Shown one piece after another: positions 1 to 44,551 of a stretch of 64,000 bases of DNA. The translations under genes were made by a program, and so were the position numbers. This stretch comes from Eukaryota sp. GEM-RC1 (taxonomy: Eukaryota): contig JAUFOQ010000001.1 of assembly GCA_040285855.1 (NCBI GenBank), positions 2,728,001 through 2,792,000 of the forward strand. Reading direction: 5' to 3'. Below the pieces are notes generated by a model. It saw nothing but the letters and a program-made list of their open reading frames with translations, ran no database searches and was not told where the DNA came from. Each line of letters starts with the position of its first letter. The stretch's first letter is position 1.

Positions 1-2575
1 TCCCATTGAAACCAACAACAGACTGATGACTTTACGATTGAGAGGATGATCATCTGCAACTAGAATAGAGAATTGTCCTAATGTTAGAGTGTAATCACAA
101 CAAACCTCCGTTTACAGGAGTCTGACTGTGATGAATGTACGCAGTAGACCGTTTCCGTCCACTTAAGAACTGTTTTACCCTCTTATATGTAATTGGGGAA
201 TGTACAGTGAAGTACTCGTCATAGAATCCTTTGGGATCAATTACCATTACTGGTGATCCTTCGAACCCTGCCTTAATTAAAGGAATGAACTCTGAAAAGA
301 CTTCGTGATCAACAAAGACGTATTGCTGAAGAGATGTGTCAATAGCTGTAATTCTATTGAGAATTGTTTGTCTTGTAGGCTCTTCAAATCCATAACACTT
401 GACTCTCATTAGTCTAAGTTGAGCCAGAAGATAGCATGGCAGTGGCCGTCTTCTAGAAAACACAAAACATTGGTGATCTCGGAAGTAAGTGGGAGTGGCT
501 GCTTCATGAGGATGAACTAGAGGAAGAGTAAGCTGCAATTTGAACACAGATCCCTTCCCCTCCTTACTTCTAACGGTAATGTTTGAGCCCATCATTCTAG
601 CTAGAGAGCCTGAGATAGCTAGTCCTAGTCCTGAACCTCCGTATTTGGTAGTAATATGTGCATTGGCTTGAGTAAAAACAGTGAATAATTTGCCGAGGTC
701 TTCCGTTGAGATGCCAATACCGGTATCATGACAAGCAAGTGTGAACGATAGATTTCCATCTGCAATTGACTGTTTTCTAAGTTGAATTCTGACATAACCA
801 TCATGAGTAAATTTTAGAGCATTTGAGACCAAATTAATTAAAATTTGTTGAAGTCGATTGCAATCGCCAGTAACCATCACATCACAGACAGGGTCTACGG
901 TATTCAACAGCTCAACTGAAATTTTTGATCTAGCAATGTCTGAGTGCATTTCGACCACATGATCAACAATTGATGGCAGGTGAAACTCTGTCTGGTCAAG
1001 CGCAATTCTACCACTTTCAATTCTGGTAAAATCAAGAATGTTTGTGATAATAGAAAGCAACGATGACGAGGAATGATTCACAATCTCCAGTATTCTTTGG
1101 GATTCATCACTAAGGTCTGTACTTTGATCGAATAGAGATAACAATCCAATAATGCTGAGATGAATGATGAAGAGAACAACATACGAATTGAGCGCTGCAA
1201 TGAGGAAAACAAGTTTAACAAACGGGTTCGCTATGATAAGAGACATGTAAACTTGAACATACAATTTCATGAGATATTGTGGCCAAGAACAATGATTTTG
1301 CTTTGTTTGCTTGATCAGCAGCAGATATCGCATCCTTTAACTCTGTTAAATCAGTCATTACGCCAGTTACTTCCAGAACTTTACCATTTTCATCAAACTT
1401 TGTTGGACGACCAGACTTTCTTACCCAAATCAAGCGTGGAGGATCATGAAATGTATACCGATGTTCATCAAAAGTGGGAAACTCTTTCCCTTCAACCACA
1501 TCGTGCCACACAGAATCCCATTGGGCTAGATGCTCTGGCACCAACTTATTTCTTAACTCATCAAATGAAACAAATGAAGAGTGAAGTCCATGCATGTCTT
1601 GTGCTAACTTGCTAGAATGAATTGGTAAAGACCATACGTTAAGGAAAACACCCGCTCATTACAATAGAATCGCCAAAATCCAAGTTTTGCAAGTCTCTGA
1701 GCTCCCTCAAGATCTTCAGCTAACGACTGAAGTTGATCTTCTTTGTGATCTAACGTTTTTAACAACCTTTCTTTCTCCCTAAACTCCAATTCGTGTTGTT
1801 TGGAATCAGGTGTCTCTGCAGTTGGTTTAATTACACCAAAAACTCTAATAGTTTGACCATTGATCTGAGCACCATAGGCTTGACAGCTGATTAGCTGAGT
1901 CTTGTTTTTGATGAGGAAAGGTGCAGTGAAGACAGCATCAGAGCACACTCCATTGAGAACGTCATCAAACTGCTGTTGGATGTGAGTTCTATGGTTCGAA
2001 TCAAAGTGGTTCATAAAGTCTTGTAGAGTCTCTGGAACAGCAACATGAGATTCGAACAAGTTCAGATATCTGTCGTCAACATAAAATGAGTCATGAGAAG
2101 GGTTATAAATGAATGTTGAAACTCCACATAGAGATAAGAACTTCTCCATCAGCCAAGACGAAGTGGCAATTTGAGCTTCTTTTGGCAGAGGTTTTACGTT
2201 GTTAAATACAATTAGTGCTTCAAATGAGTTTAATGCAATAACATTGATAAGGAAGGTACGGGGTACTCCAATTGGGGATTGAAGTGTGATGATCTGAGCC
2301 TCCATTGGGATCGAGTGGGAGAGAGACTGTTTCAGTTTCTGGGTGAACAAAGAAGCTTCAAAAAAGTCTGGGAAGAGTGTATGTATATCCAATGATTTCA
2401 AGGACTCAACATCAGTATCTAGATGAAATGCCAACTTATGGAAAACATCTGCAATTGACCCATCTACGTTAATCAGAGCAATCGCTGAAGGGGATTCAAG
2501 GAGTGAATGTGGCATCCTGTAAAGATAATCAAGACTGACAGAGATATCCTCATCAAGATGAACACTGTGATACAT
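1..2575 (-). CDS. Hybrid sensor histidine kinase, copy 1 (PAS-like x2-3, HisKA, HATPase_c, receiver); 3' end runs off the window
   Basis: Introns at 1612-1637, 1231-1262, 1195-1223, 1155-1184 and 78-105 join the ORF pieces. Splicing gives H-box SHEIRTPLNSIIG, N-box ILINLVSNALKFT, G1 DTGIGI, G2 GGSGLGLAI and receiver start SILVADDHPLNRK. Confidence 0.9.
1155..1262 (-). other. Three tiny spliceosomal introns (32, 29, 30 nt) flanking microexons of 7 nt (1224-1230) and 10 nt (1185-1194)
   Basis: Boundaries GTATG..TAG, GTTTG..CAG, GTATG..CAG. Removing them restores E-I-R-T-P-L-N-S-I-I-G exactly. Confidence 0.9.
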
Positions 2576-2968: not shown

Positions 2969-3059
2969 TAATACCTAAAGGTGCAAAGGGGAAGGTAAAG
3001 GGTGTTTATAAATCAAATTATACGTACTAGTAACACTTCACTAACACCTGTGGCTAACA
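2969..3059 (-). repeat. 3' LTR of copy 1 (91 bp, TGTTAG...GGTATTA)
   Basis: Exact match to the other three LTRs. Confidence 0.95.
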
Positions 3060-6000
3060 TTACCTCTTCTCTCTTCTTGAGCTCCTTGTCCTCTTAGCTA
3101 CAGGTGTCTTAACTACAGACGATGACTTTGGAATACTCATACTACTTGAGGTACGTTTAAGCTTAGTGGGTTTACTCTTAGCTACGTTTCTACTATTACA
3201 AAATAAATCTACATTTTCTAATTTTACAAATTCACTATACGCCTTGGTGTTCTTGATGTCCTTGGTGGGAACTGATGAAGTATCACCACCAAACCAAAGT
3301 ACAGTACAATGTTCACCATCGGGTGTATTGAACCTATCTAGGATCTTAACCACGATGTGTTCTTCAGAATCCCCAGAAGCAATTGCTCTGTGGAGATCAT
3401 GATCAGCAGGTAGATCTGATTGAAAGATCTTACATTGATGAATGCTAGTCTTACTAACATATCCAGTGATCAGATTCTTTAAGGAAACTGACGATTTCGA
3501 ATCAATTGAGACAACTAAATAAGGTCCAGTGTAATTACCATGAAGCTTACTAGTTTTGGATGCTTTTAAAACAAGGTCTCCTACATTGAATGATTGACTG
3601 GGGCCAGACTTCTTCTTTGGCTTGAGTCTCGATTGACGAACCTCTGCCTCTTCTCTCTTTTTAGTAAGACGATCCAGTTTCATTTTAATGTCGTTAATAA
3701 ACGGAACATTCTTTGTTGATTTCTCAACAGCAGCTAGTAAATTACTAGGATCTGCACCAGGACTTATGTCACTACCAAACATCAATTCATAAGGTGAGTG
3801 CCCAGTCACAGAACTATTCGTTGCGTTGATTTGCAATTGTACAGTTGGAATGTACGTTGACCAATTGTCATAATCATTGAAGTCCACAAGAAGACGACGT
3901 AGGCTTTGCAGAACGTCTCTGTGACGTCGTTCCACCAGTCCATTACTCTGGGAGAAATGAGGAATCGAACGACTTACTTCAATCGCCAGTAGGTTACATA
4001 TTGCCTCGAAAATAGCATTGGCAAACTCGGTACCATTATCACTATGGATACAAAACGGTATTCCAAAGATAGCAATCACATCCCACACAAGACGATATGC
4101 TACTTCTCTACTGTTAAGTTCTTCGAGGGGGGCTCAAAATGGTGTATCTGGTGAAAGAATCTACAAACACCAATAGGAATTGGTTTCCATTTTGATCTTT
4201 TGGAAGTGGACCAATTGTGTCGACATTAAGTCTGGCAAAAGGTCTATCAGCCCATAGAGAACCCGTCGATTCAATTATCTTTTTAGGGACAGGTGCCGTT
4301 TTCTGACACGCAGGGCATTGCTTAACATGTTTTACCATGTCAGCTTTCATACTTGGCCAAAAGTAACCACTATTGAACAATATTTCCAAACTTCGTTTCT
4401 TGTTTGGATGTCCTGACTGGACTAATCCATGTAGCATGTAAAGAACTTTCGTTCTCAAACTAGATGGAATCAAAATCTTGTTCTTGGAGTTGATGTATAC
4501 GTTGCTCATAGTACACAGTGTTGAATCCTGAAACAGTTGATCTCCTTCATTGATAGCTTTGTGTTGTTCAGCTCGAATGGTTGATAACCAAGAATCAAAT
4601 AAAGGCAATTTATTGTATGTTGAGAGGTCTTGTAGACTCTTGATAGCTAGTATGTTGGTGTTACAAGGAAGCATCTCAACGTAATCAGCTTCATCATAGA
4701 TTAACCCTTCGTGAGAAAGAATTATATCATTTCTGATGGTATGATTTGAGATCAACAGAGATTTGATTGTTTCAACTGGGCGACGGTCAATGACACGTGA
4801 TAACATGTCAGCCCATTGATTGTTTGTACCAGCTACATGCTCTATCTCAAAATCAAACTCCGAGAAAATTGGAATCCATCGTTTGACAATACGATTCTTC
4901 TCTGGAGCTGAAATCAGATAAGCAAGGTTCCTATGATCTGTAAAGATCGTCAAATGCCTACTTAATAGGAAACCTTCTAAACTAGATTCGGTCAGAATCA
5001 AGAGAATGGCATACAGCTCTTTCTGGATAGCTGCCCAATTCTGTTGACTATCATTGAGTAAACGGCTATAAAACGATACAGGTCTAACTCTACGTTCTTC
5101 TAACGGAGTTCCTGGAGGAGCTGGAGGATTTTCTTCCTGCCAGATCACTCCACCAACAGCAATGTCGGATGCATCTGTGGATATGATAATGTTCTTATCA
5201 GTATCAGGTAAGTCTAAAGCCATATGGTTTATTATTTCAGTTTTAATTTTGTCTAATAAAGCATCATGGTCTTTTGTCCAAGCAATTTTCTTGGGTTTAC
5301 CACGAGTCAGTTCATTGATTGATGCAGTCAAGTTCGAGTAGTTTGGAATCCATTCACGAACATAATTTAAAGCACCAAGTAAACTTCTAACTTCAGGTAA
5401 AGTTGAAGGAGCAGGTAACTCAATCAACGCCGAAACTCTTTTATCATCTATGCAACGGGTTTTATTACAAAAGTTGCTGCCCAGAATCTTATTAGGATGT
5501 CTAGAAGTGGTGAACCTACACTTCTTCAATCCAATCCGTACTCTAAAACGTTCTGCTCGTTCCAGTACTAGATTTATTCTTGAAATAAACTCTTCAAAGG
5601 TATTGCCTACAACAATTATATCATCAATATAAATGAAAACACCTTCGACATTGAAAATTTCCATCATGATGTTTTGAAAGATTGCTGGTACGTTTTTCAA
5701 TCCAAAACATGCTCGTTTAAAGCTAATTGACATTCCAGGTATAGACACACTGGTCTTCTCGACATCTTCTTCAGCTACATTTAGCTGCCAGAATGCTTTA
5801 GGAAGGTCAAGTGTTCCAATGAAATTAGCTTTCGAAAGGAACTCTAGAACATCACAGATCCGTGGTAAATTTGGTTTCACCGGTCTGGTATTAGCATTAA
5901 TCCCATCAGGTCCACTGAAATCTCCAGTTAAACGAGGCTTACGGTGATCATTATATACCACCAAGACTATGGGACTACTGAACTTACCAGTTGATGGTAC

Positions 6001-7077
6001 GGCCCATCCTTGTCGTATAAGTTCATTAAAAATTTCTTCGGCTATTCGCTGTTTTTCAGGGTTAAGCCTTCTAGGAGGACGAAATACAGTGACAGATTCA
6101 TCATAAAATGGAATTGTCATGGGTGGACAATCAATACCATCAGGATGTATGTCTTCTGAAAAGACTTGTTTGTATTTACTGAGTAGGCTCAGAAGCTCCG
6201 TTCTTCTTGTAGGATCATCCAATTCTATCGTGCAACCAGAGTTGTCAATGGTTTCTTCAAACAGATTTATATCTAATTGAGTGTTACCGTACTGATCAAT
6301 AGGAAAATGTGTTGAATGTTGATTTATTGAACATTTTGATTGAACTCTATTAATCGAAATTGATGGAGACCTCATTCTCTCATCAAATTCACTCTCTGCA
6401 TTGAGAATAGTGCGATGTTCTTTATCTAATCTAATGACTAGACCATCATCCGAAAGCAACCCCAGTTCTTCTTGCAAATCTCTACCAATGAGGAGAATTT
6501 TCGTTCCAGGAACTACAGGTAGAGTATGCTTAACATGAATCTGGTTGGCCAAGCTGCCAACGTTGAACGTCAGAACACCAATTGCACTACCTAAGGAAGT
6601 AGCACGAATATTATTCGCTGAGATGTATTCAATACAACTATCAGTTGTTGTCATCTCACAGTAGCGTATCAAATCTTGAGAAATTACTGAACATGATGCT
6701 GCTGAGTCAAATTCTCCTACTACTGGTACATTGTTGATTAACAATCGAATACATAAAGGACCGTTACCTTTAGTTTCGAACCCTAGGTTCTGGTTGAGAC
6801 TACGAATTGTTTCAACTGATGAAACACTTTTACCCGTACTTGATTGTGTGATCAAAGTAGCCAAAGGGTTAGTGTATTTGAGTGGTGTAGTGTTTTTGTT
6901 TGAATTATGTTGTGCATTATCAATTTTGAAAATGTATCTAGGAGATTTATGATTTTTAAAACTACGAGAACGACTATCAGGACGACTATCACCAGACCTA
7001 CGCTTATTGGACTTTGCATTATCCTGAGATTTACGACAATCAGGAGCATAATGGCCTTTTTGCCACATTTGAAACAT
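3060..7077 (-). CDS. pol: Pol (protease, RT, RNase H, integrase, degenerate chromodomain-like tail), copy 1; extra G in the run at ~4127-4132
   Basis: FDSAAS, LDLPKAFWQL, YIDDI, TDASD, HHCC (H..GHP..CPAC), VDTIGPLP, SDNGTEF, NGLVER, YTGPY. Copy 2 is intact at the 4130 break. Confidence 0.93.
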
Positions 7078-9664
7078 TCTACATCAGTGGACTTACCATC
7101 AGAGGGTTTAGAGTACCTCTGGTTGAAGGACTTTCTAGGAAAACGAGAATTTCCACGGGAATGGTCACGAGACCTTCTTTGAGAGTTTGAAAACGATGTC
7201 GTTGGCATCGAACGCTTGTAATCGATCCAAGCTGTCTTTACTTCACTCAAAAATTCAGGAAGCAAATGTTCATTGTTCTTTAAAGTGTGTTCCCACTTAA
7301 CTTGGAGATCGTTTAGAGCAGCAATTTCTTTCTGAGGATTGAGTGTACATAACACTAAGTCGGCTGAGATGCTAGCTGGGAGAAAAGTTCTACCAGTACC
7401 TAGGGAAATGGCTGTCGAACATTTTAAAATGTTGATAACAAGCTTTAGGTACCGATTCATTACAGTGGATGGATCATTAGATTGACTAAGTCTAAGATTC
7501 TTCAGATCACCCATAGCTTGAGTAGTAGAAGTGTATTGGCTCAGGAGAACCAATCTGAACCAAAGGTCTTTTTCAGTTATGTTTGAATCTGGACCTGGAA
7601 CATTTAGAAGCTTCCAGTCACTCAGCAATTGACGATCAATGAATTCGGAAACACCAGTAGGATCAATCTCTAACAAAGTGAGTCTTACGAGATCAAATTT
7701 ATTGATTGGAGCGATACCTAAACGAGTGTCAAAGTCTTTACGATTTGATTGTTTCCGGACATGAATTGCCCAATAACTAAATTCATGGATGAACTTAATT
7801 ATGTCCTCGCGACTCTCGGATTTGAGGCAGCTGGGTCTTGATTTCTTTGAAATGGACTTTTTCTTTGTTCGATCTTTTCTTTGAGGGACACCAGAAAAAA
7901 TGATGGGAGTATCAGCCAAAACGTTCGGTTCTTCGTCTTCAGATGAGCTATCTTCAGACATAGAGTCAGTGACATCAGAAAGTTCTGCCAAAGGTGATTT
8001 TGATTGAGAAGTCAGATCACTTATCTCGATCGAATTTGATCGTTTAGGAGTTTTTCTACTTCTGGTCATGTGAGCAACATGATTTTTTCTATTTTGAGCA
8101 AGCTGTTCTGAGGAGAGAGCCATGGACATAGATTCATCACAACCTTTAGCAAAGCCTTCTGGCTTACGATAAACACTTTCATGTTCTTCTAAGCTGATGA
8201 ATCTTTCTTCACCACCAAATTGAGCTTCAAAATTTTGGGTAGAGATACCATCTCTAAGACCGTGTGTAAATCTATCAACCTGCTCAGGTCTGTAAACTTC
8301 ACCAGGGAAGAATCTTTGAACACTATCTAAGCCATTTAAATCAGAAAGGTTCGGAGCAAATGTAGCTTTTTCACACATAGCTTGAGAAGCTAATGGGAGT
8401 ACCAATTGGGAACCACCAATTCCAGAAAAAGGTTGAACAGGGACAGAGTCAACATCTTGTGGTGAAGTTGACAAACTATCCAGAACTCTTGTCGCCGCAG
8501 GTAAATGACTATACTGATGACCAGTAGGGAGCCATTCGGTACTTACAGAAACGTTGTGATATAACTTGCGTTTATTGTTCAACGAATGTAAGTACCAGGC
8601 GGAGTATTCATATGAAACTGACTGACCATCAGCACTGAATATCTGGACTAAAGGTTCAATGATGATACCATGTCTAGGATCCCAAGAGTAGGTGGAAGGA
8701 AACCTATAAGTATCACCAGCTCTACTATCATATAAGTCACCCAAAAACTGTTTTATGGCTTGAGGAGACGTGCCAGGAGGAACATTTTTCAGCAAGTAAT
8801 GTCTTCCAGCAGGCATTCTATGACGCAAAGTGGGATGCCAGGGAGCAAATTTGGCAAGATGCCACAAGTCGTAGTCAGAGATGGAGACACTCTGATCGTA
8901 CGGACTTACAAACGGGATGAGATCGTTGGGAACTGCATCTCTATGAGGTCTAGACACATAACCGGTTTGTTGTTCTACAGCTAGAGCTCTCTCAGTCATG
9001 GAAAGATTAGCTGTTTTTTGCTGTTGCTCCAGAAGCTGTCGTTTTGCTTCTTCTGCCCTGGTCTTATGCTGAGCTAGGACTGTTTGAAGTTGCCTAAGGC
9101 TCTCTTCAACCTCTCTAGACAGAGGAACTGAAGGATCAACGTTATCTTTATTTAATAAACTACTAACTAACAAGGAAGAATCAGAAACATGATGAGAGGG
9201 CAATGATGTTGGCTGAACTACAGACGAAGTAGCATTACCCACAACATTGTCTCCCGGAGTACTAGTGGTATCTGAAAAGATAACGGGGACTCCGTATTTC
9301 TCCAGAACCTTCTTGATTCCAAGAGGATCTTCCTGTTCTGGTCCAATGGATGACTCCAAAGGACCAGGGTTGCCGCCAGACTCCGAAGAGCCCAAGGGTC
9401 TTATACCAGTCGTTTCGCCGGCTTCCGAAGAAGCCAAGGAACTTCCATCAACGTTTGAAGATGGGCTCTCGTGTGAGGAGAGACTCTCGGGTGAGGAGAG
9501 TTCGGACACAAAGTCCTCTTCATCTACTGAGGATTCAGTAGGCACTTCGATCGGGGTGGCAGAGCTCTTCGATACTCTGGTCTTTTGACAGACCTACTTG
9601 GCTGTCTGCGGTTAGTAACTCCTTTCTTAGGAGCAGCTGTAGTAAGATTCCTCTTTTTTACCAT
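6852..9664 (-). CDS. gag: Gag with long N-terminal extension, copy 1; one base missing in the run at ~9583
   Basis: Near-identical to 14207-17020; ATG at 9664; zinc knuckle begins CFKCGKK. Confidence 0.8.
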
Positions 9665-9679
9665 GAGGATAATAATTAT

Positions 9680-9770
9680 TAATACCTAAAGGTGCAAAGG
9701 GGAAGGTAAAGGGTGTTTATAAATCAAATTATACGTACTAGTAACACTTCACTAACACCTGTGGCTAACA
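9680..9770 (-). repeat. 5' LTR of copy 1
   Basis: Exact 91-bp repeat. Confidence 0.95.
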
Positions 9771-12616
9771 CATCTCTGTGATCAAATCACTTCTGGACAC
9801 TGGTTTTGCCATCCATGAGTTCATTCCACTGTTAATAGTATGGTACCTCGATTCAACGGACACATCACCAGTCAGACAGAGAATTTTTACCTTGGAAAGA
9901 CCATTCATGCCTTCATGTCTACGTATATCCTTTGCAGCTTGAGTTCCGGAGTACGGCATTCTATAGTCTAAACAAACCAGATCATAAGCACTTGGATTAT
10001 CTCGATATTTCTCCGCTGCTTTGTCACCATTATCAACTAGAGTCACCACACATCCCAATGAACCTAACAACAGACTAATGAATTTACGATTGAGAGGGCG
10101 ATCATCTGCAACAAGAATAGAGAATTGTCCTAATGTAAGAAAGAAAGCAAAACAAACCTCCATTGACAGGAGCCCTCAGAGTTTGAATCTTACGATAATG
10201 CAGATGTGGGGTGGACCGTTTCCATCCACTTAAGAACTGCTTTACTCTCTTATATGTAATTTGGGAATGAACAGTGGAGTACTCGCCATATGATCCTTTG
10301 GGATCAATTACCATTACTGGTGATCCTTCAAAACCTGCCTTGATTAAGGGAATGAACTCTGAAAAGACTTCGTGATCAACAATAATATACTGCTGAAGAG
10401 TTGTATCAATAGCTGTTATTCTATTGAGAATTGATTGCCTTGATGGTTCTTCAAATCCGTAACACTTCGTTTTCATTAGTCTAAGTTGAGCCAGAAGAAA
10501 ATAGGAGAGCGGTCGTCGTCTACAAAACACAAAGCATTGGTGATCTCGGAAGTAGGTGGGAGTTGCTGCTTCATGTGGATGTACCAGGGGAAGAGTAAGC
10601 CGTAGTTTGAATACCGATCCTTTGCCCTCCCTACTTCTAACGGTAATGTTGGAGCCCATCATTCTAGCTAGGGACCCTGAGATAGCTAGTCCTAACCCTG
10701 AACCTCCGTACTTGGTCGTGATTTGGGCATTGGCTTGAGTGAAAACATTGAACAATTTGCCAACATCACTAGTTGAGATGCCAATACCAGTATCGTGGCA
10801 GGAAAGAGTGAACGATAGATTTTTATCTGCTATTGATTGTTTTCTAAGTTGGATTCTGACATAACCACTGTGAGTAAACTTTAGTGCATTCGAGACCAAG
10901 TTGATTAAAATTTGTTGAATTCGATTACGATCACCGACTACCATCACGTCACAGACAGGGTCTACAGTATTCAATAGCTCAACTGATGCTTTGGACCCAA
11001 CAATGTCTGAGTGTATTTCAATCACATGATCGATAATTGATGGTAGGTGAAATTCTGTCTGGTCAAGCTCAATCCTACCACTTTCGATTCTGGTAAAGTC
11101 AAGAATGTTTGTGATAATAGAAAGTAACGATGATGATGAATGGTTGACAATCTCCAGAATTCTTTGCGATTCATCGCTAAGGTCTGCACTTTGATCTAAT
11201 AAAGACAACAAACCAATAATGCTGAGATGAATGATGAAGAGAACAACATACGAATTGAGCGCTGCAATAAGGAAAACAAGTTGAACAAACGGGTTCGCTA
11301 TGATAAAAAACATGTAAACTGGGACATACAATTTCATGAGATATTGTTGCCAAAAACAAGGATTGTGCACGGTTAGCTTCACTTGCTGCCACTATTGCAT
11401 CATTTAGCTCTGTTAAATCAAGCATTACGCCAGTTACTTCCAGAACTTTACCATCTTCGTCGAACTTTGATGGACGGCCAGACTTTCTTACCCAAATCAA
11501 GCGTGGAGGATCATCAAACGTATACCGATGTTCATCAAATGTTGGAAACTCTTTCCCTTCGAAAACATCGTGCCATGACGAATCCCATAGCTGTAAGAAA
11601 TCAGGAACTAACTTATTCCTGAAATCATCATAAGAAACAGATACTGAGTGAAGTCCATGAATTTCTTGAGCACTCTTGCTGAAATGAATAGTAAAAGAAC
11701 ATACGTCAAGTAAAATACTTGATTTTCACAATCGAGACGCCAAAATCCAAACTATGCAAGACACTGCGCATCCTTTAGATCTTTCTTTATCGATAAAACT
11801 TGATTTTCCTTACTGTGTAGAGTTTTCAACAACTTTTCTTTCTCCTTAAACTCCAATTTGTGTTGCTCGAAATCAGGTGTATCTGAGATTGGTTTGATGA
11901 CGCCAAAAACTCTAACGGTGTGACGATTTAACTCAGCTGCAAAAGCTTGACAGCTGATTAGCTGAGTCTTGCCATTGATGAGGAAAGGTGCAGTGAAGAC
12001 AGCATCAGAGCTCACCCCATTGAGAACGTCATCAAACTGCTGTTGGATGTGCATTTTGTGGGTTAAATCAAAGTGGTTCATAAAGTCTTGTAGAGTCTCT
12101 GGAACACCGATAGGAGATTTGAACATTTTCAAATATCTGTCGTCAACATAAAAGGAGTCATGCGAAGGATTATATATGAATGTTGAAACTCCACACAGGG
12201 ATAAGCATTTCTCCATTAACCAGGAAGAAGTGGCAACCTGTGCTTCCCTTTGGTAGAGGTTTTGCGTTGTTAAATACAATTAGTGCCTCAAATGAGTTTA
12301 ATGTAATAACATTGATTAAGAAAGAACGGGGAACCCCTGTTGGGGATTGAAGTGTGAAGATCTGAGATTCCATTGGGATCGAGTGGGAGAGAGACTGTAT
12401 CAGTTTCTGGGTGAACAAAGACGCTTCAAAGAAGTCTGGGAAGAGTGTATGGATGTCTAGAGATTTCAAGGATTCAACGTCAGTATCAAGATGAAATGCC
12501 AACTTACGGGAAACGTCAGCAATGATCCCATCTACGTTGACAAGAGCAATCGCTGAAGGAGATTCAAGGAGTGGCCGTGGCATTCTGGGTGGAGAATCAA
12601 GACTGACAGAGATATC
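9771..12616 (-). pseudogene. Hybrid histidine kinase, copy 2, probably disabled
   Basis: Paralog of 1-2575 with the same introns (11679-11704, 11298-11329, 11262-11290, 11222-11251, 10130-10157) and receiver LVCLDYRMP...KPV. Defects: in-frame TAG at 11752-11754, an extra base near 12246, and an LTR insertion near the C-terminus. The 5' start is uncertain. Confidence 0.8.
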
Positions 12617-14100: not shown

Positions 14101-14191
14101 TGTTAGCCACAGGTGTTAGTGAAGTGTTACTAGTACGTATAATTTGATTTATAAACACCCTTTACCTTCCCCTTTGCACCTTTAGGTATTA
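14101..14191 (+). repeat. 5' LTR of copy 2
   Basis: Exact 91-bp repeat. Confidence 0.95.
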
Positions 14192-14206
14192 ATAATTATT
14201 ATCCTC

Positions 14207-17020
14207 ATGGTAAAAAAGAGGAATCTTACTACAGCTGCTCCTAAGAAAGGAGTTACTAACCGCAGACAGCCAAGTAGGTCTGTCAAAAAGACCAGAGTAT
14301 CGAAGAGCTCTGCCACCCCGATCGAAGTGCCTACTGAATCCTCAGTAGATGAAGAGGACTTTGTGTCCGAACTCTCCTCACCCGAGAGTCTCTCCTCACA
14401 CGAGAGCCCATCTTCAAACGTTGATGGAAGTTCCTTGGCTTCTTCGGAAGCCGGCGAAACGACTGGTATAAGACCCTTGGGCTCTTCGGAGTCTGGCGGC
14501 AACCCTGGTCCTTTGGAGTCATCCATTGGACCAGAACAGGAAGATCCTCTTGGAATCAAGAAGGTTCTGGAGAAATACGGAGTCCCCGTTATCTTTTCAG
14601 ATACCACTAGTACTCCGGGAGACAATGTTGTGGGTAATGCTACTTCGTCTGTAGTTCAGCCAACATCATTGCCCTCTCATCATGTTTCTGATTCTTCCTT
14701 GTTAGTTAGTAGTTTATTAAATAAAGATAACGTTGATCCTTCAGTTCCTCTGTCTAGAGAGGTTGAAGAGAGCCTTAGGCAACTTCAAACAGTCCTAGCT
14801 CAGCATAAGACCAGGGCAGAAGAAGCAAAACGACAGCTTCTGGAGCAACAGCAAAAAACAGCTAATCTTTCCATGACTGAGAGAGCTCTAGCTGTAGAAC
14901 AACAAACCGGTTATGTGTCTAGACCTCATAGAGATGCAGTTCCCAACGATCTCATCCCGTTTGTAAGTCCGTACGATCAGAGTGTCTCCATCTCTGACTA
15001 CGACTTGTGGCATCTTGCCAAATTTGCTCCCTGGCATCCCACTTTGCGTCATAGAATGCCTGCTGGAAGACATTACTTGCTGAAAAATGTTCCTCCTGGC
15101 ACGTCTCCTCAAGCCATAAAACAGTTTTTGGGTGACTTATATGATAGTAGAGCTGGTGATACTTATAGGTTTCCTTCCACCTACTCTTGGGATCCTAGAC
15201 ATGGTATCATCATTGAACCTTTAGTCCAGATATTCAGTGCTGATGGTCAGTCAGTTTCATATGAATACTCCGCCTGGTACTTACATTCGTTGAACAATAA
15301 ACGCAAGTTATATCACAACGTTTCTGTAAGTACCGAATGGCTCCCTACTGGTCATCAGTATAGTCATTTACCTGCGGCGACAAGAGTTCTGGATAGTTTG
15401 TCAACTTCACCACAAGATGTTGACTCTGTCCCTGTTCAACCTTTTTCTGGAATTGGTGGTTCCCAATTGGTACTCCCATTAGCTTCTCAAGCTATGTGTG
15501 AAAAAGCTACATTTGCTCCGAAACTTTCTGATTTAAATGGCTTAGATAGTGTTCAAAGATTCTTCCCTGGTGAAGTTTACAGACCTGAGCAGGTTGATAG
15601 ATTTACACACGGTCTTAGAGATAGTATCTCTACCCAAAATTTTGAAGCTCAATTTGGTGGTGAAGAAAGATTCATCAGCTTAGAAGAACATGAAAGTGTT
15701 TATCGTAAGCCAGAAGGCTTTGCTAAAGGTTGTGATGAATCTATGTCCATGGCTCTCTCCTCAGAACAGCTTGCTCAAAATAGAAAAAATCATGTTGCTC
15801 ACATGACCAGAAGTAGAAAAACTCCTAAACGATCAAATTCGATCGAGATAAGTGATCTGACTTCTCAATCAAAATCACCTTTGGCAGAACTTTCTGATGT
15901 CACTGACTCTATGTCTGAAGATAGCTCATCTGAAGACGAAGAACCGAACGTTTTGGCTGATACTCCCATCATTTTGTCTGGTGTCCCTCAAAGAAAAGAT
16001 CGAACAAAGAAAAAGTCCATTTCAAAGAAATCAAGACCCAGCTGCCTCAAATCCGAGAGTCGCGAGGACATAATTAAGTTCATCCATGAATTTAGTTATT
16101 GGGCAATTCATGTCCGGAAACAATCAAATCGTAAAGACTTTGACACTCGTTTAGGTATCGCTCCAATCAATAAATTTGATCTCGTAAGACTCACTTTGTT
16201 AGAGATTGATCCTACTGGTGTTTCCGAATTCATTGATCGTCAATTGCTGAGTGACTGGAAGCTTCTAAATGTTCCAGGTCCAGATTCAAACATAACTGAA
16301 AAAGACCTTTGGTTCAGATTGGTTCTCCTGAGCCAATACACTTCTACTACTCAAGCTATGGGTGATCTGAAGAATCTTAGACTTAGTCAATCTAATGATC
16401 CATCCACTGTAATGAATCGGTACCTAAAGCTTGTTATCAACATTTTAAAATGTTCGACAGCCATTTCCCTAGGTACTGGTAGAACTTTTCTCCCAGCTAG
16501 CATCTCAGCCGACTTAGTGTTATGTACACTCAATCCTCAGAAAGAAATTGCTGCTCTAAACGATCTCCAAGTTAAGTGGGAACACACTTTAAAGAACAAT
16601 GAACATTTGCTTCCTGAATTTTTGAGTGAAGTAAAGACAGCTTGGATCGATTACAAGCGTTCGATGCCAACGACATCGTTTTCAAACTCTCAAAGAAGGT
16701 CTCGTGACCATTCCCGTGGAAATTCTCGTTTTCCTAGAAAGTCCTTCAACCAGAGGTACTCTAAACCCTCTGATGGTAAGTCCACTGATGTAGAATGTTT
16801 CAAATGTGGCAAAAAGGCCATTATGCTCCTGATTGTCGTAAATCTCAGGATAATGCAAAGTCCAATAAGCGTAGGTCTGGTGATAGTCGTCCTGATAGTC
16901 GTTCTCGTAGTTTTAAAAATCATAAATCTCCTAGATACATTTTCAAAATTGATAATGCACAACATAATTCAAACAAAAACACTACACCACTCAAATACAC
17001 TAACCCTTTGGCTACTTTGA
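14207..17020 (+). CDS. gag: Gag with long N-terminal extension, copy 2
   Basis: Starts 15 nt after the LTR. R/S-rich nucleocapsid region; CCHC knuckle split at the A5 run 16811-16815. Confidence 0.8.
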   Translation: MVKKRNLTTAAPKKGVTNRRQPSRSVKKTRVSKSSATPIEVPTESSVDEEDFVSELSSPESLSSHESPSSNVDGSSLASSEAGETTGIRPLGSSESGGNPGPLESSIGPEQEDPLGIKKVLEKYGVPVIFSDTTSTPGDNVVGNATSSVVQPTSLPSHHVSDSSLLVSSLLNKDNVDPSVPLSREVEESLRQLQTVLAQHKTRAEEAKRQLLEQQQKTANLSMTERALAVEQQTGYVSRPHRDAVPNDLIPFVSPYDQSVSISDYDLWHLAKFAPWHPTLRHRMPAGRHYLLKNVPPGTSPQAIKQFLGDLYDSRAGDTYRFPSTYSWDPRHGIIIEPLVQIFSADGQSVSYEYSAWYLHSLNNKRKLYHNVSVSTEWLPTGHQYSHLPAATRVLDSLSTSPQDVDSVPVQPFSGIGGSQLVLPLASQAMCEKATFAPKLSDLNGLDSVQRFFPGEVYRPEQVDRFTHGLRDSISTQNFEAQFGGEERFISLEEHESVYRKPEGFAKGCDESMSMALSSEQLAQNRKNHVAHMTRSRKTPKRSNSIEISDLTSQSKSPLAELSDVTDSMSEDSSSEDEEPNVLADTPIILSGVPQRKDRTKKKSISKKSRPSCLKSESREDIIKFIHEFSYWAIHVRKQSNRKDFDTRLGIAPINKFDLVRLTLLEIDPTGVSEFIDRQLLSDWKLLNVPGPDSNITEKDLWFRLVLLSQYTSTTQAMGDLKNLRLSQSNDPSTVMNRYLKLVINILKCSTAISLGTGRTFLPASISADLVLCTLNPQKEIAALNDLQVKWEHTLKNNEHLLPEFLSEVKTAWIDYKRSMPTTSFSNSQRRSRDHSRGNSRFPRKSFNQRYSKPSDGKSTDVECFKCGKKAIMLLIVVNLRIMQSPISVGLVIVVLIVVLVVLKIINLLDTFSKLIMHNIIQTKTLHHSNTLTLWLL

Positions 17021-20000
17021 TCACACAATCAAGTACGGGTAAAAGTGTTTCATCAGTTGAAACAATTCGTAGTCTCAACCAGAACCTAGGGTTCGAAACT
17101 AAAGGTAAAGGTCCTTTATGTATTCGATTGTTAATCAACAATGTACCAGTAGTAGGAGAATTTGACTCAGCAGCATCATGTTCAGTAATTTCTCAAGATT
17201 TGATACGCTACTGTGAGATGACAACAACTGATAGTTGTATTGAATACATCTCAGCGAATAATATTCGTGCTACTTCCTTAGGTAGTGCAATTGGTGTTCT
17301 GACGTTCAACGTTGGCAGCTTGGCCAACCAGATTCATGTTAAGCATACTCTACCTGTAGTTCCTGGAACGAAAATTCTCCTCATTGGTAGAGATTTGCAA
17401 GAAGAACTGGGGTTGCTTTCGGATGATGGTCTAGTCATTAGATTAGATAAAGAACATCGCACTATTCTCAATGCAGAGAGTGAATTTGATGAGAGAATGA
17501 GGTCTCCATCAATTTCGATTAATAGAGTTCAATCAAAATGTTCAATAAATCAACATTCAACACATTTTCCTATTGATCAGTACGGTAACACTCAATTAGA
17601 TATAAATCTGTTTGAAGAAACCATTGACAACTCTGGTTGCACGATAGAATTGGATGATCCTACAAGAAGAACGGAGCTTCTGAGCCTACTCAGTAAATAC
17701 AAACAAGTCTTTTCAGAAGACATACATCCTGATGGTATTGATTGTCCACCCATGACAATTCCATTTTATGATGAATCTGTCACTGTATTTCGTCCTCCTA
17801 GAAGGCTTAACCCTGAAAAACAGCGAATAGCCGAAGAAATTTTTAATGAACTTATACGACAAGGATGGGCCGTACCATCAACTGGTAAGTTCAGTAGTCC
17901 CATAGTCTTGGTGGTATATAATGATCACCGTAAGCCTCGTTTAACTGGAGATTTCAGTGGACCTGATGGGATTAATGCTAATACCAGACCGGTGAAACCA
18001 AATTTACCACGGATCTGTGATGTTCTAGAGTTCCTTTCGAAAGCTAATTTCATTGGAACACTTGACCTTCCTAAAGCATTCTGGCAGCTAAATGTAGCTG
18101 AAGAAGATGTCGAGAAGACCAGTGTGTCTATACCTGGAATGTCAATTAGCTTTAAACGAGCATGTTTTGGATTGAAAAACGTACCAGCAATCTTTCAAAA
18201 CATCATGATGGAAATTTTCAATGTCGAAGGTGTTTTCATTTATATTGATGATATAATTGTTGTAGGCAATACCTTTGAAGAGTTTATTTCAAGAATAAAT
18301 CTAGTACTGGAACGAGCAGAACGTTTTAGAGTACGGATTGGATTGAAGAAGTGTAGGTTCACCACTTCTAGACATCCTAATAAGATTCTGGGCAGCAACT
18401 TTTGTAATAAAACCCGTTGCATAGATGATAAAAGAGTTTCGGCGTTGATTGAGTTACCTGCTCCTTCAACTTTACCTGAAGTTAGAAGTTTACTTGGTGC
18501 TTTAAATTATGTTCGTGAATGGATTCCAAACTACTCGAACTTGACTGCATCAATCAATGAACTGACTCGTGGTAAACCCAAGAAAATTGCTTGGACAAAA
18601 GACCATGATGCTTTATTAGACAAAATTAAAACTGAAATAATAAACCATATGGCTTTAGACTTACCTGATACTGATAAGAACATTATCATATCCACAGATG
18701 CATCCGACATTGCTGTTGGTGGAGTGATCTGGCAGGAAGAAAATCCTCCAGCTCCTCCAGGAACTCCGTTAGAAGAACGTAGAGTTAGACCTGTATCGTT
18801 TTATAGCCGTTTACTCAATGATAGTCAACAGAATTGGGCAGCTATCCAGAAAGAGCTGTATGCCATTCTCTTGATTCTGACCGAATCTAGTTTAGAAGGT
18901 TTCCTATTAAGTAGGCATTTGACGATCTTTACAGATCATAGGAACCTTGCTTATCTGATTTCAGCTCCAGAGAAGAATCGTATTGTCAAACGATGGATTC
19001 CAATTTTCTCGGAGTTTGATTTTGAGATAGAGCATGTAGCTGGTACAAACAATCAATGGGCTGACATGTTATCACGTGTCATTGACCGTCGCCCAGTTGA
19101 AACAATCAAATCTCTGTTGATCTCAAATCATACCATCAGAAATGATATAATTCTTTCTCACGAAGGGTTAATCTATGATGAAGCTGATTACGTTGAGATG
19201 CTTCCTTGTAACACCAACATACTAGCTATCAAGAGTCTACAAGACCTCTCAACATACAATAAATTGCCTTTATTTGATTCTTGGTTATCAACCATTCGAG
19301 CTGAACAACACAAAGCTATCAATGAAGGAGATCAACTGTTTCAGGATTCAACACTGTGTACTATGAGCAACGTATACATCAACTCCAAGAACAAGATTTT
19401 GATTCCATCTAGTTTGAGAACGAAAGTTCTTTACATGCTACATGGATTAGTCCAGTCAGGACATCCAAACAAGAAACGAAGTTTGGAAATATTGTTCAAT
19501 AGTGGTTACTTTTGGCCAAGTATGAAAGCTGACATGGTAAAACATGTTAAGCAATGCCCTGCGTGTCAGAAAACGGCACCTGTCCCTAAAAGATAATTGA
19601 ATCGACGGGTTCTCTATGGGCTGATAGACCTTTTGCCAGACTTAATGTCGACACAATTGGTCCACTTCCAAAAGATCAAAATGGAAACCAATTCCTATTG
19701 GTGTTTGTAGATTCTTTCACCAGATACACCATTTTGAGCCCCCTCGAAGAACTTAACAGTAGAGAAGTAGCATATCGTCTTGTGTGGGATGTGATTGCTA
19801 TCTTTGGAATACCGTTTTGTATCCATAGTGATAATGGTACCGAGTTTGCCAATGCTATTTTCGAGGCAATATGTAACCTACTGGCGATTGAAGTAAGTCG
19901 TTCGATTCCTCATTTCTCCCAGAGTAATGGACTGGTGGAACGACGTCACAGAGACGTTCTGCAAAGCCTACGTCGTCTTCTTGTGGACTTCAATGATTAT

Positions 20001-20810
20001 GACAATTGGTCAACGTACATTCCAACTGTACAATTGCAAATCAACGCAACGAATAGTTCTGTGACTGGGCACTCACCTTATGAATTGATGTTTGGTAGTG
20101 ACATAAGTCCTGGTGCAGATCCTAGTAATTTACTAGCTGCTGTTGAGAAATCAACAAAGAATGTTCCGTTTATTAACGACATTAAAATGAAACTGGATCG
20201 TCTTACTAAAAAGAGAGAAGAGGCAGAGGTTCGTCAATCGAGACTCAAGCCAAAGAAGAAGTCTGGCCCCAGTCAATCATTCAATGTAGGAGACCTTGTT
20301 TTAAAAGCATCCAAAACTAGTAAGCTTCATGGTAATTACACTGGACCTTATTTAGTTGTCTCAATTGATTCGAAATCGTCAGTTTCCTTAAAGAATCTGA
20401 TCACTGGATATGTTAGTAAGACTAGCATTCATCAATGTAAGATCTTTCAATCAGATCTACCTGCTGATCATGATCTCCACAGAGCAATTGCTTCTGGGGA
20501 TTCTGAAGAACACATCGTGGTTAAGATCCTAGATAGGTTCAATACACCCGATGGTGAACATTGTACTGTACTTTGGTTTGGTGGTGATACTTCATCAGTT
20601 CCCACCAAGGACATCAAGAACACCAAGGCGTATAGTGAATTTGTAAAATTAGAAAATGTAGATTTATTTTGTAATAGTAGAAACGTAGCTAAGAGTAAAC
20701 CCACTAAGCTTAAACGTACCTCAAGTAGTATGAGTATTCCAAAGTCATCGTCTGTAGTTAAGACACCTGTAGCTAAGAGGACAAGGAGCTCAAGAAGAGA
20801 GAAGAGGTAA
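16795..20810 (+). CDS. pol: Pol (PR-RT-RH-IN-chromo-like), copy 2; one A missing at ~19588
   Basis: Same motifs as copy 1. Copy 1 is intact (PKKII) at this break. Confidence 0.93.
20792..20807 (+). promoter_or_regulatory. Polypurine tract overlapping the last pol codons
   Basis: AAGAAGAGAGAAGAGG, then the TAA stop, then the LTR TGTTAG. Copy 1 equivalent at 3063-3078. Confidence 0.85.
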
Positions 20811-20901
20811 TGTTAGCCACAGGTGTTAGTGAAGTGTTACTAGTACGTATAATTTGATTTATAAACACCCTTTACCTTCCCCTTTGCACCTTTAGGTATT
20901 A
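20811..20901 (+). repeat. 3' LTR of copy 2
   Basis: Exact 91-bp repeat. Confidence 0.95.
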
Positions 20902-35077: not shown

Positions 35078-36510
35078 ATGCTTCAAGGAACTTTAGAACC
35101 CAGTGCAGAAGGACCGGTAGATGTTGAAGTTAATGACATCAAACGATCACAAGTCTCTTTCTATGACAAAATTGATGCCTTAATCTCTCGCTATACGGAA
35201 ACTGATGTCTGTCCTATTGGAGAGACAAGAACTTATGAAATGGATCTCATTCTGCGGCTCATCTTTGTTCTCGCCACGGTCGGTTTTCCTTTCTTCAGTG
35301 CCGATACCTTGATAACAAGATTGGCTAAACGTTGGGGATATCAAATTTATCTAGCAGCTACACCCAACATAATAACAGTTGTTGTCATTGGTGAGAGACC
35401 AAACAAGGCCAGCGTATACACAGTTTGTTGGACTTTCCTCACTAGATCTGATCACAGGTTCCGCTTTATAGAAACATTCCAGGTATGTGTACTTCGACTC
35501 TCATTTAAGGTCCATTCTTCATGGATTTGATAGAAGAATATGGTGTGTTGCTAAATGAAGCAATTACAGGAAGAATTGATATAGACGAAACTTATGAACG
35601 GCTTTATCGAACACTCTCTCGAAAGCACAACAGACCGGCTGCTCTGTACCTCATTGCTGGAGCTACTTCTGCCTTGGGACTGGTAACGTTGTTCCCAGAA
35701 TCTCATTGGCTTGATTTGGGAATTGCTGCTGCTGGAGGTTTTCTTACTCAGCTGTTATTGCTGATAGGCAAACAGCCATGGATAATTTCAAGATTTTTTA
35801 AACTTTATGAGTTTACGGTCCCATTCTTCGTTTCCTTCTTTGTAGCTAGCGTTGCAACCTTCTTGCCAATCTCCCAAGAATCCATTATCATTGCTAGTAT
35901 CTCATGGATTCTTCCAGGAATCACTGTCACTTTAGCTACACTAGAACTTGCAACGTTAAACACTGTTCTTGGATCGGCGAGGTTTGTCTTTGCCATAATT
36001 GTTATCTTGCTCTTGGCGTTCGGAATAACAGGTGGTCTATTTGCAATTACTTTGTTCACATCAAGACCTGTTGACTATGATGGAGGTGGAATTCCGGTTT
36101 TATTTTTGCTTCTGTTTATACCAGTAATAGCAGTTTCATTTGCAGTCCTAATGAATGCCAAAGTACACCAGTTCTTGACATTCACCATTGCATCAGCCCT
36201 TGCTTACTCCATTGAGAGAGTATCAAGACCAGCATTAAACGATTTCAGTGTCGCGGCCTCAGCATTTGTGGTAGGTGCGTTTTCCTACCTGTATAGCTAC
36301 CTCTTTAAACAACCAGCGATCATATTTAGTGTTGCTGGGATCCTTATTCTTGTTCCAGGATCTCTAGCAGTTCTTGGTTTCGTTGATGTGATTGGAGGTG
36401 ATGTGGTTGATGGATTGGTAGTTGCTTTGCAGGTATTAATTATTTCTGCACAAATCTCACTAGGGCTACTGTCCGCTACGGTCATATTTAATTCGTCAAA
36501 AACAATTTAA
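35078..36510 (+). CDS. ThrE-family (threonine/serine exporter-like) membrane protein; introns 35423-35457 and 35483-35509
   Basis: ~10 TM segments with ILPGITVT..EL...GSARF and ILILVPGSLA motifs. Splicing gives ..VYTVPLYRNIPGPFFMDL.. Confidence 0.8.
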
Positions 36511-42411: not shown

Positions 42412-43929
42412 CTAACACTTCATGTCAGGAGTGCGTTGAAGTGGACAAAACAAGTTCATGTTAACATAAGGATCAATTTTGTTGAAATATTCAATCTCAG
42501 GATAATGGAAATTTCCAAATACTTGACAAATCGATGAAGTCCCATATCCACAATAAGCAGGCTTGTCAGGCCAATTCTCACGATAAATAGCAAGCTGTGC
42601 CAAATCCTTGGGAGTTTGCTCCTGTGGAACAATAAAGTCAATCAAATCAGGATGGAAAATGCCTCCTTGTTTCAAAAGTTCAAATACAAATGAACTACAA
42701 ACAAGCTGGCGATTACCATCATACATCCAGTCCTTGTCTTCAGGAATAGCAAGAAGTTGACCAAAGTTCATATCTCCTCGTTTAATGAGAACTTTAACAA
42801 TGTCTTCTACAGACTTAACAGAGTAATCATTGAGGCGATGGCGGAGACCTGCAAACATGATAGTATCAATGTAGTCAGGGACAACGGCTTCAGCGATCTT
42901 CGTAGCAACCAATATCATTTGCCAAGTGAAGCTTCCTGGCCAATTATCATGCTCAGCTGAAGTAAGAAACAAGAGGAGGAAACCATACTGTCAATAAAGG
43001 TGTATATGAAGTTTGACATACCATATGGTGTCCCTTCGTTACGTTTGAACCATTCTACAGCGGCAGAATTGTTGAACCTTTTAGAAATGTCATCGCTAAG
43101 AGGCATCAATATCGCCATCTCGTATTTTATTGTACTTTCCTCCTTCAACCACCGTTCAAAAGGAGTGGCAGAAAATCCCCTTCTGGGCTTGAATTCCTTT
43201 CCATGGGCCTGATAAGTAGACTCGACGAAATGAAGGACACCGTCGATATCAAGAATAATACCGCTAGTATTAGTATAAAGAAAAGGGAACAAACCAATGA
43301 CCAGCAAATGCACCAGTTCCAAAGGAGATGATTGTAGTTATAGCAGATCCACCATCTGATTCAAGGATCACGTCACCAGGTCTCAATAAGTTCACATCGA
43401 AGGCGGTGGGTGGAATATGGCGGGGTTGAAGCGTGATGTTGAGTCTTTCTTGAAGAAAGTCAACGTTTTCTCTAGCCGAATGTTTCCCCATGAACATATG
43501 TAATGTGTGGAACACGTCCTTAGCATTGTGGATGAACGATTGGTCGACATTGAAGATGAAAACACCGTTTTTCTTTGCGTCAATAAAGTCTTGATCAGAG
43601 AGACGTATGTGCCATCTATGACGACCACGGAAGAAAACTTCTCGTAAGTGAAGGCCAGATTGTGTTAGAACAAGGTATGTATCCATGCAGACAGGAGATC
43701 GAGCATATGAAGTTTCAAGCGAAACGACAAGCTTCTTATCCTTATCTTGGAATTTGAACGTCATGGTATTTTCATGAAAGCATCTCGCGTCCCAATCAAA
43801 AGAACGATCACCATCAGAAGAGTTGAAACTGGTTACCAATGTGGGAAGAAAGTCGAAGTGTGATGACTCGACAACAGCACACGTTAGTGATAGAAGAAGA
43901 AGGACGATCAATAAGACATAGATCAACAT
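42412..43929 (-). CDS. Secreted permuted papain-like (YiiX/YaeF-type) protein; introns 43264-43294 and 42957-42988
   Basis: Signal peptide; LRPGDVI, GHCGII after splicing, EGTPYG, and VCSSFV give His-before-Cys order; QEQTPKD. Confidence 0.65.
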
Positions 43930-44551
43930 GATGTCAGATGGTTTAAAAAGGTAGAGGCAGAAATTGAATTGGATTGAACTTTCCGTGTTCTGAGGAACTG
44001 CCTAGACTAGTAGTAGCATGTTCAACTAAATTCTCATGTCTGATAATGTAGATGAAGAAATCTTGTAATAGACAGACAACAATTAAACGAGAATAAACTG
44101 ATGTGATTAAACAACAAATGAATTTGTCTATACAACAGATGTCAGATGTCATTTTGTGGTTTAGTCTCTAAAAGTCCTTGTTCTTGTCAGGCTGTGCTTG
44201 GGTTTGATGAAAATTACTCCAGAAATTGTTGTCCAAAAGGAAAATACAGTATAAAACATCCCTTATTAGCTAAGAAAGAGAATCATAGTGGTGTTTTAAA
44301 TCAAAACTACTTTAATGTTGTACGTACTATTTTAGTACCATTAAAAATGAGATTGCCTCGCAAACCAATGATACACTACCTCTCACATTCCAATCAATTA
44401 AGTGTAAGAATACATGCTATTCGATGCATACAATGCAACAAGAGTTCTCTAGAAACAAGAAAAACAAATCCTTCAGTAAACAGTGTTTCACAAGAATAGT
44501 AAATTAGAAAAACAATCTTCATCATACATAATGTGGCTAGGATAGAATATA

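Follow-up and report, generated by a model that had tools for sequence, protein, structure and literature searches.

Two microexons between three tiny introns are predicted to encode the H-box of a hybrid histidine kinase in Eukaryota sp. GEM-RC1

Results

In a window of 64,000 nucleotides (nt) from "Eukaryota sp. GEM-RC1" (assembly GCA_040285855.1, contig JAUFOQ010000001.1, positions 2,728,001 to 2,792,000 of the forward strand), we find two copies of a gene for a predicted hybrid sensor histidine kinase. Very likely, the phospho-acceptor motif (H-box) of this kinase is encoded on exons of 7 and 10 nt that lie between three tiny introns, all of which are predicted to be removed constitutively. 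Introns 1 and 2 are better supported than intron 3, and we regard the structure as ordinary, though neat. Coordinates below are positions in the window, both copies lie on the minus strand, and splicing is throughout a prediction from the comparison of DNA and protein sequences.

In copy 1, the upstream exon ends with the codons for SHEI, as read directly from the DNA (1274-1263). It is followed by intron 1 (32 nt, GTATGT...TCATAG, 1231..1262), a 7-nt microexon (CGAACCC, 1224..1230) that supplies the codons for R and T and the first base of P, intron 2 (29 nt, GTTTGT...TTGCAG, 1195..1223), and a 10-nt microexon (CGCTCAATTC, 1185..1194) that supplies the remainder of P, L, N, and two bases of S. 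Intron 3 (30 nt, GTATGT...TCTCAG, 1155..1184), which is in frame and stop-free, then leads into the next long exon, which begins CATTATTGGA... at 1154, with IIG first. Together, the three introns and two microexons occupy exactly 108 nt. An earlier note on this DNA had claimed that removal of GT-AG introns of 32, 29, and 30 nt yields SHEI-RTP-LNS-IIG exactly, and direct reading confirms this. It had also claimed that no open reading frame (ORF) contains an intact H-box, which is borne out by the list of ORFs and by their Pfam matches. Thus, the long downstream ORF (95-1336) matches Pfam HisKA over profile positions 20-66 only, beside a strong HATPase_c match, and the upstream ORF reads ...SHEIVCSSLH..., on into ...SHEIVCSSLHVSYHSEPVC-stop, so that retention of intron 1 brings a stop 13 codons on. 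The note had further stated that the frame shifts when either microexon is skipped or one of the first two introns is retained; we computed this and found it correct. Skipping of both microexons shifts the frame as well, whereas retention of intron 3 leaves it intact. After splicing, copy 1 is open over 790 codons with 0 stops.

Evidence for the triple removal comes from a profile of 159 H-box segments, including the dimerization and histidine phosphotransfer (DHp) helix, taken from 116 non-self homologues returned by a protein search. With all three introns removed, copies 1 and 2 score 100.6 and 99.4 bits, compared with 84.9 and 83.4 bits when intron 3 is kept and 49.7 bits at most for the unspliced frames. 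Only the triple removal gives a full-length, gap-free DHp match, which for copy 1 spans positions 2-79 of the 80 in the profile. We enumerated every set of up to three GT..AG removals, each of 15-70 nt, in the H-box stretch. The 16 GT..AG pairs found there give 92 combinations, 32 of them open, among which the proposed triple is the unique best (100.6 bits versus 84.9 for the next). When the 108-nt core was shuffled 200 times, 122 shuffles gave an open candidate, with a maximum of 81.1 bits (mean, 69.0; standard deviation, 3.5), and none of the 200 reached 100.6. A GT donor, an AG acceptor, and a restored conserved frame are found for all three introns in both copies. The triple-intron layout is therefore a real feature of the sequence and not a chance pattern.

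Copy 2 has the same arrangement, as the earlier note had also proposed; its cluster reads directly at 11329-11222, with intron 1 at 11329-11298, the 7-nt exon at 11297-11291, intron 2 at 11290-11262, the 10-nt exon at 11261-11252, and intron 3 at 11251-11222. Both microexons are identical to those of copy 1. The copy as a whole (9765..12583, deposited as a protein of 732 amino acids) contains one surplus base near 12248, its first exon is interrupted by an in-frame TAG (LAK becoming LA-stop), and its C-terminal tail is lost at about 9770 (9765-9775; ITEL.. becoming ITEMC-stop), at the edge of the left arm of a retroelement pair. Judging from these lesions, copy 2 is a recently disabled copy, which serves as a second witness for the structure and not for its function.

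Such damage might raise the suspicion that the family is decaying, that the three segments are insertions that broke the H-box, and that their GT..AG ends are coincidental. Besides the frameshift, the stop, and the truncated tail of copy 2, its position between retroelement copies and the truncated model of a further paralog (P0226, see below) would fit this scenario. We nevertheless hold it to be extremely improbable. Removal restores the motif exactly, no shuffle came close, and splicing leaves copy 1 free of stops along its whole length. The layout is identical in at least five paralogs, and in P0226 the changes in the microexons appear silent once read in the spliced frame. Moreover, the ratio of nonsynonymous to synonymous substitution rates (dN/dS) between copies 1 and 2 is 0.15 in the kinase core, where the proportion of synonymous differences (pS) is 0.40, so the family has been under selection as a protein; in the first exon the ratio is 0.17-0.27.

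Copy 1 corresponds to the NCBI hypothetical protein GEMRC1_001245 (P0001) of this unclassified eukaryote (taxid 3038955), and four further paralogs are found on the same 3.98-Mb contig (P0002, P0003, P0004, which is copy 2, and P0226), giving a family of at least five copies. The domain order in P0001 is a weak PAS_3, HisKA (46.0 bits at a cutoff of 26.9, profile positions 1-66), HATPase_c, and Response_reg (63.7 bits). The ATP-binding motifs QILINLVSNALKF, DTGIGI, FTVFTQ, and GGSGLGL are present, which we take to be the N, G1, F, and G2 boxes, respectively, and the receiver carries ILVADD, LVCLDYRMP, and AKP, that is, the acidic pocket (DD), the acceptor Asp, and the Lys. Apart from the translated intron 3, P0001 has no convincing membrane segment and hence would be soluble. 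Taken together, these features identify the gene product as a predicted soluble PAS-HisKA-HATPase_c-REC hybrid sensor histidine kinase, with predicted kinase and phosphorelay activity. Among the matches listed, the closest non-self proteins are bacterial or metagenomic (28-46% identity). Beyond the paralogs themselves, no named eukaryotic relative is among them: all named organisms are bacterial and many entries are unnamed metagenomic ones, in a database that is mostly prokaryotic. Possibly, the kinase family derives from a bacterial transfer and acquired its introns later. The window reads well in the standard genetic code (413-codon open frame); most ciliates do not read well with that code.

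The remaining exons of copy 1 follow from the same comparison. The first coding exon (1638..2515) starts at a conserved ATG (MPHSLLESP...), matches P0001, and encodes the N-terminal sensor region with a weak PAS-like end. A 26-nt GT-AG intron within the PAS_3-like region (GTATGG..CTAG, 1612..1637) joins ORFs 1604-2593 and 1215-1655 and is used in P0001. The second exon (1263..1611) encodes the end of the PAS_3-like domain (Pfam PAS_3, E value of 2e-4) and the start of the DHp helix, terminating in ...LATISHEI with the phospho-acceptor His. Downstream of the cluster, the third long exon (106..1154) encodes, according to Pfam, the remaining DHp helix (IIGLLSLF...), the HATPase_c domain (88.6 bits) with its four boxes, and a linker. 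It is followed by a 28-nt GT-AG intron ahead of the receiver domain (GTTTGT..CATTAG, 78..105), also used in P0001, and by an ORF that holds the start of the receiver exon (1..77, QFSILVADDHPLN..., matched by Response_reg in P0001), from where the gene continues beyond the window.

The deposited gene models bear on the structure in two ways. When intron 3 is kept, our coordinates reproduce residues 21-820 of P0001 with 800/800 identities, the deposited start lying 20 codons upstream of the conserved ATG. Hence, the introns of 26, 32, 29, and 28 nt were already removed in the annotation, which also made use of the 7-nt exon. Four of the five deposited paralog models (P0001 to P0004) splice introns 1 and 2, and the earlier note's claim that automatic annotation would miss the structure therefore stands in part only: introns 1 and 2 and the 7-nt exon are modeled in four of the five, but intron 3 is missed in these four and introns 1 and 2 in the fifth. 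The four full-length models translate intron 3 as YVVLFIIHLS, YVDLFITHLS, or YVFLIIYPS between LNS and IIG. In P0001, no other 19 consecutive residues are as hydrophobic as the region concerned (residues 435-453; Kyte-Doolittle mean, 2.3), which could pass for a transmembrane helix. Since the P0004 model bypasses a genuine in-frame TAG by way of an unlikely intron, the deposited models seem to be ab initio predictions rather than based on transcripts, and their treatment of intron 3 thus has little weight.

These models might nonetheless be right, in which case splicing would remove only introns 1 and 2, and a hydrophobic insertion of 9 to 10 residues after the H-box would be encoded by the 30-nt segment. 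The segment is in frame and stop-free in all four models that contain it, it is identical between copies 1 and 2 (30/30) despite a pS of 0.40, and the sole length difference among the paralogs is 3 nt. The four open segments are a biased sample, however, as only paralogs with an open segment can be modeled in this way, and gene finders tend to read 3n stop-free introns (introns of a length divisible by three) as exon, according to PMC1950532. Retention of the segment also costs 15.7 bits against the H-box profile. Residues inserted between the H-box and the following hydrophobic-hydrophobic-Gly are found in none of the 159 homologous segments: a fixed spacing, H-E-x-R-x-P-x-x-x-h-h-G, fits 144 of them, and the other 15 lack the Gly and have no insertion. 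Consistent with this, the 66 positions of Pfam HisKA are stretched across 77 residues of P0001, which means that Pfam treats the retained segment as an insertion.

The sequence of the segment itself also argues for an intron. It has a GTATGT donor and a CAG acceptor, its pyrimidine content of 70% resembles that of the other introns, and the TTCAT within it is spaced from the acceptor just as its counterpart in the 26-nt intron is. Across the four paralog models, 5 of its 10 columns are invariant, compared with 503 of 708 overall, and the invariant residues include Y, V, and S, the positions over the GTATGT and AG signals. In between fall the radical changes V to D (or F), I to T, H to Y, and L to P, as well as a one-residue deletion (9 versus 10 residues). 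A difference of 9 versus 10 residues would presumably rotate the downstream helix by about 100 degrees, which a four-helix bundle would not be expected to tolerate. Finally, the codons of intron 3 are absent from the P0226 model; either the intron is missing from this copy or it was removed there by the gene finder. We consider coding of the 30-nt segment unlikely; most likely, intron 3 is a 3n stop-free intron that has wrongly been kept as coding in the public models.

The fifth paralog, P0226, offers a further view of introns 1 and 2. It corresponds to GEMRC1_000158, lies outside the window, and is deposited as a protein of 447 amino acids without a Pfam domain on record. Its model reads both introns as coding sequence, finishes in the wrong frame, and, because of this read-through, is truncated at the H-box. 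By the same token, the sequence of this copy is visible in protein form across both introns. In a codon-wise alignment with copy 1, at least 10 of the 32 bases of intron 1 and at least 4 of the 29 bases of intron 2 differ, and the GTATGT and GTTTGT starts and a TTTCCTCATTGCAG end are kept. Parsimony places 4 changes among the 17 microexon bases, and each of the 4 alters a residue when the introns are read through. In the spliced frame, by contrast, three of them (two in the 10-nt exon, one in the 7-nt exon) hit third codon positions and are silent; the fourth is CGA to AGA, which is silent, or to GGA. Of 38 changes that the read-through frame would reveal, splicing would render 13 silent, which puts the chance of this outcome at 0.04 (three silent) or 0.014 (four silent). 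With the nucleotides inferred from protein, these changes would speak for selection on the spliced reading. Beyond the cluster, the true frame of P0226 still encodes a DHp-like helix (IIGL...), and the kinase half of this gene is probably unannotated.

Between the two window copies, which are 84% identical, the cluster stands out by its conservation. The H-box introns differ at 6 of 91 positions, compared with 12 of 54 in the other two introns (Fisher P of 0.009), and they are also better conserved than the exons. The most conserved 108 nt of the 2.5-kb alignment are found at 1253-1146 (versus 11213-11320), although synonymous sites differ by 40%, and the longest identical run, 56 nt at 1201-1146, starts near the end of intron 2, takes in all of the 10-nt exon and of intron 3, and extends 9 nt farther. 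In P0002, P0003, and P0226 the cluster varies; the intron position is common to all five copies, and the interiors have diverged in these three. Possible causes of the conservation between copies 1 and 2 are local gene conversion, extra splicing constraint near the microexons, and a translated isoform.

The earlier note had suggested that splicing of the cluster could be an on/off switch for the sensor. Regulated splicing might switch the kinase on and off or tune it, for example by a detained intron 3 or skipped microexons. Missplicing of intron 1, intron 2, or either microexon shifts the frame and retention of intron 3 does not, no other 108 nt are as well conserved between the copies as the cluster, a 56-nt stretch across intron 3 is identical, and plant microexons tend toward detained flanking introns (PMC8831610). 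The argument from frame is true for most coding introns, however, and nothing here points to regulation. Since the conservation is limited to two neighboring copies and does not extend to P0002, P0003, and P0226, local gene conversion explains it equally well. In addition, one of the two conserved copies is disabled. A regulatory switch at this site thus strikes us as quite unlikely.

In a specific version, which we consider very unlikely, intron 3 would be a conserved in-frame "detained" intron whose retention inserts 9 to 10 hydrophobic residues ten residues past the His, twisting the DHp helix. If this were true, a kinase that is inactive or phosphatase biased could be produced without the mRNA being sent to decay, the choice would become all-or-none through the two frame-shifting introns at the microexons alongside, and the most conserved 108 nt between the copies would reflect this control.

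Tiny introns are not confined to the H-box. The kinase gene has at least five introns, and those of 26 nt (1637-1612) and 28 nt (105-78) have GTATG or GTTTG donors like the H-box introns, a YTNAY ending about 7 nt before the acceptor, and YAG. The T content of the five introns is 42-48%, compared with 30-31% in the three long exons. Three of the five introns fall inside 17 coding nt, which is nonrandom (simulation P of 0.0017). An unrelated gene without a Pfam match (ORFs 42412-44001, minus strand) has GT-AG introns of 31 and 32 nt within 42957-43294, GTTTGT..CTAG and GTATGG..TCAG, with donor types as in the kinase gene. In this small sample, tiny introns are thus not kinase specific. Ten other ORF junctions gave 2 canonical-looking tiny candidates, 5 with poor candidates only, and 3 with none. 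At one junction, in a ThrE-family gene on the plus strand (35051/35509), two ORFs lie in different frames, the upstream one without Pfam support; a GTATGT..TTAAG candidate (35483-35509) is 27 nt and thus 3n, and the frames fit only a 23-nt GTGTAC..AAG. An unusual intron might explain this, as might a sequence error.

As to the origin of the introns, similarity to the flanking exons, as expected from duplication of neighboring exon sequence, was not beyond chance (P values of 0.13 to 1.0). Likewise, a search for a repeated "introner" origin found only the splice signals to match between introns (best P of 0.018, uncorrected, for 10 pairs). Excision of the type of ciliate internal eliminated sequences, which are bounded by TA, was rejected by eye, as cuts at TA pairs would not yield RTP.

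Copy 2 is flanked by an inverted pair of 6.8-kb Ty3/gypsy-like elements at 2969-9770 and 14101-20901, and its end looks as if the element has truncated the gene. A few small indels aside, the two elements (RVT_1, RNase H, and integrase) are identical at essentially 100%; in the left copy, one of these indels disrupts the frame of the integrase. No direct repeats (long terminal repeats) of at least 150 nt were found at these copies. The pair represents either a very recent insertion pair or an assembly artifact.

Discussion

How might such a cluster be processed? The spliceosome would recognize every intron of about 30 nt as a unit (intron definition), and the introns would be removed sequentially, because a 7-nt exon has little room for factors at both flanking sites simultaneously. 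After all three removals, the mature mRNA would encode a continuous SHEIRTPLNSIIG phospho-acceptor helix, and the spliced kinase would autophosphorylate the His of the H-box and then transfer the phosphate to the Asp of its own receiver. Retention of intron 1 or 2 would lead to a premature stop, and that of intron 3 to a hydrophobic insertion of 10 residues.

Several observations weigh against constitutive removal of all three introns. Four of the five deposited models keep intron 3, which is 3n and stop-free in each of them, a class that is depleted among the tiny introns of ciliates (PMC5014332). Intron 3 is unchanged between the window copies (0/30), and no other 108-nt stretch of the gene is as well conserved between these copies as the cluster, which coding constraint would also fit. 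The nucleotide changes in P0226 come from parsimony on the protein and are not read from DNA. With canonical-looking tiny introns at 2 of the 10 other ORF junctions, the rules for splicing in this genome are drawn from few examples. A loose motif of donor, branch, and acceptor showed no enrichment across the window (29 occurrences versus 24.8 ± 4.7 expected), a scan for any GT..AG joining two open frames gave no signal above scrambled signals, and a scan for introns over all ORF pairs was too noisy. Lastly, a search for sequencing runs with positions 1-2700 of the window listed none, and transcript-derived protein fragments were not found among proteins of 30-516 or 617-2000 amino acids.

Coding microexons of up to 15 nt that encode conserved motifs and are missed by annotation have been described in plants (PMC8831610), and an adjacent pair of 5- and 12-bp microexons has been verified by RNA sequencing (PMC11096116); in the latter article, microexon and histidine kinase occur in separate passages. 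As in the plant microexons of Yu et al., we find an adjacent pair inside a conserved motif, models that are partly wrong, and a structure that is kept among copies. In contrast to these, the flanking introns here are 29-32 nt, so that the whole cluster takes up 108 nt of genomic sequence, and its splicing is predicted from sequence. Moreover, the host is an unclassified protist, and what the cluster encodes is the catalytic H-box of a two-component kinase. Our literature search found no publication that combines microexons with tiny introns and none that mentions GEM-RC1.

The introns themselves are reminiscent of those in ciliates, for which a "splicing spellchecking" of tiny introns through nonsense-mediated decay has been described (Bondarenko and Gelfand 2016, PMC5014332). 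The introns found here are of the same class of 25-35 nt, and retention of either of the first two would result in a frameshift or a premature stop. Intron 3, in contrast, is 3n without an in-frame stop and hence belongs to the class that is underrepresented there. That 3n stop-free introns are mistaken for exon in gene prediction was deduced from genome-wide length distributions (Roy and Penny 2007, PMC1950532). Intron 3 is of this class, being 30 nt, in frame, without a stop, and translated in four of the five paralog models; here, however, a single intron is concerned, and the case is made through homology and not from genome-wide lengths. As for the protein, it resembles bacterial-type hybrid kinases (PF00512, PF02518, and PF00072) in domain order and has all catalytic motifs, but it differs in that the gene is eukaryotic, has at least five predicted spliceosomal introns, and belongs to a multicopy family next to retroelements.

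In conclusion, motif-coding microexons and 3n stop-free introns that are misread as exon are already known kinds. What is notable here is that two microexons and three introns are packed into 108 nt, in a catalytic motif and in an obscure host. Unless splicing proves to be regulated, this is a modest biological curiosity, but it offers a clean example of a catalytic motif that would exist only after the splicing of two microexons, in a genome with introns of about 30 nt. It also points to a specific error, probably a systematic one, in the gene models deposited for this organism, for which it offers a concrete correction. Counts and classification of two-component sensors in this lineage, or the training of gene finders on it, would otherwise be misled.

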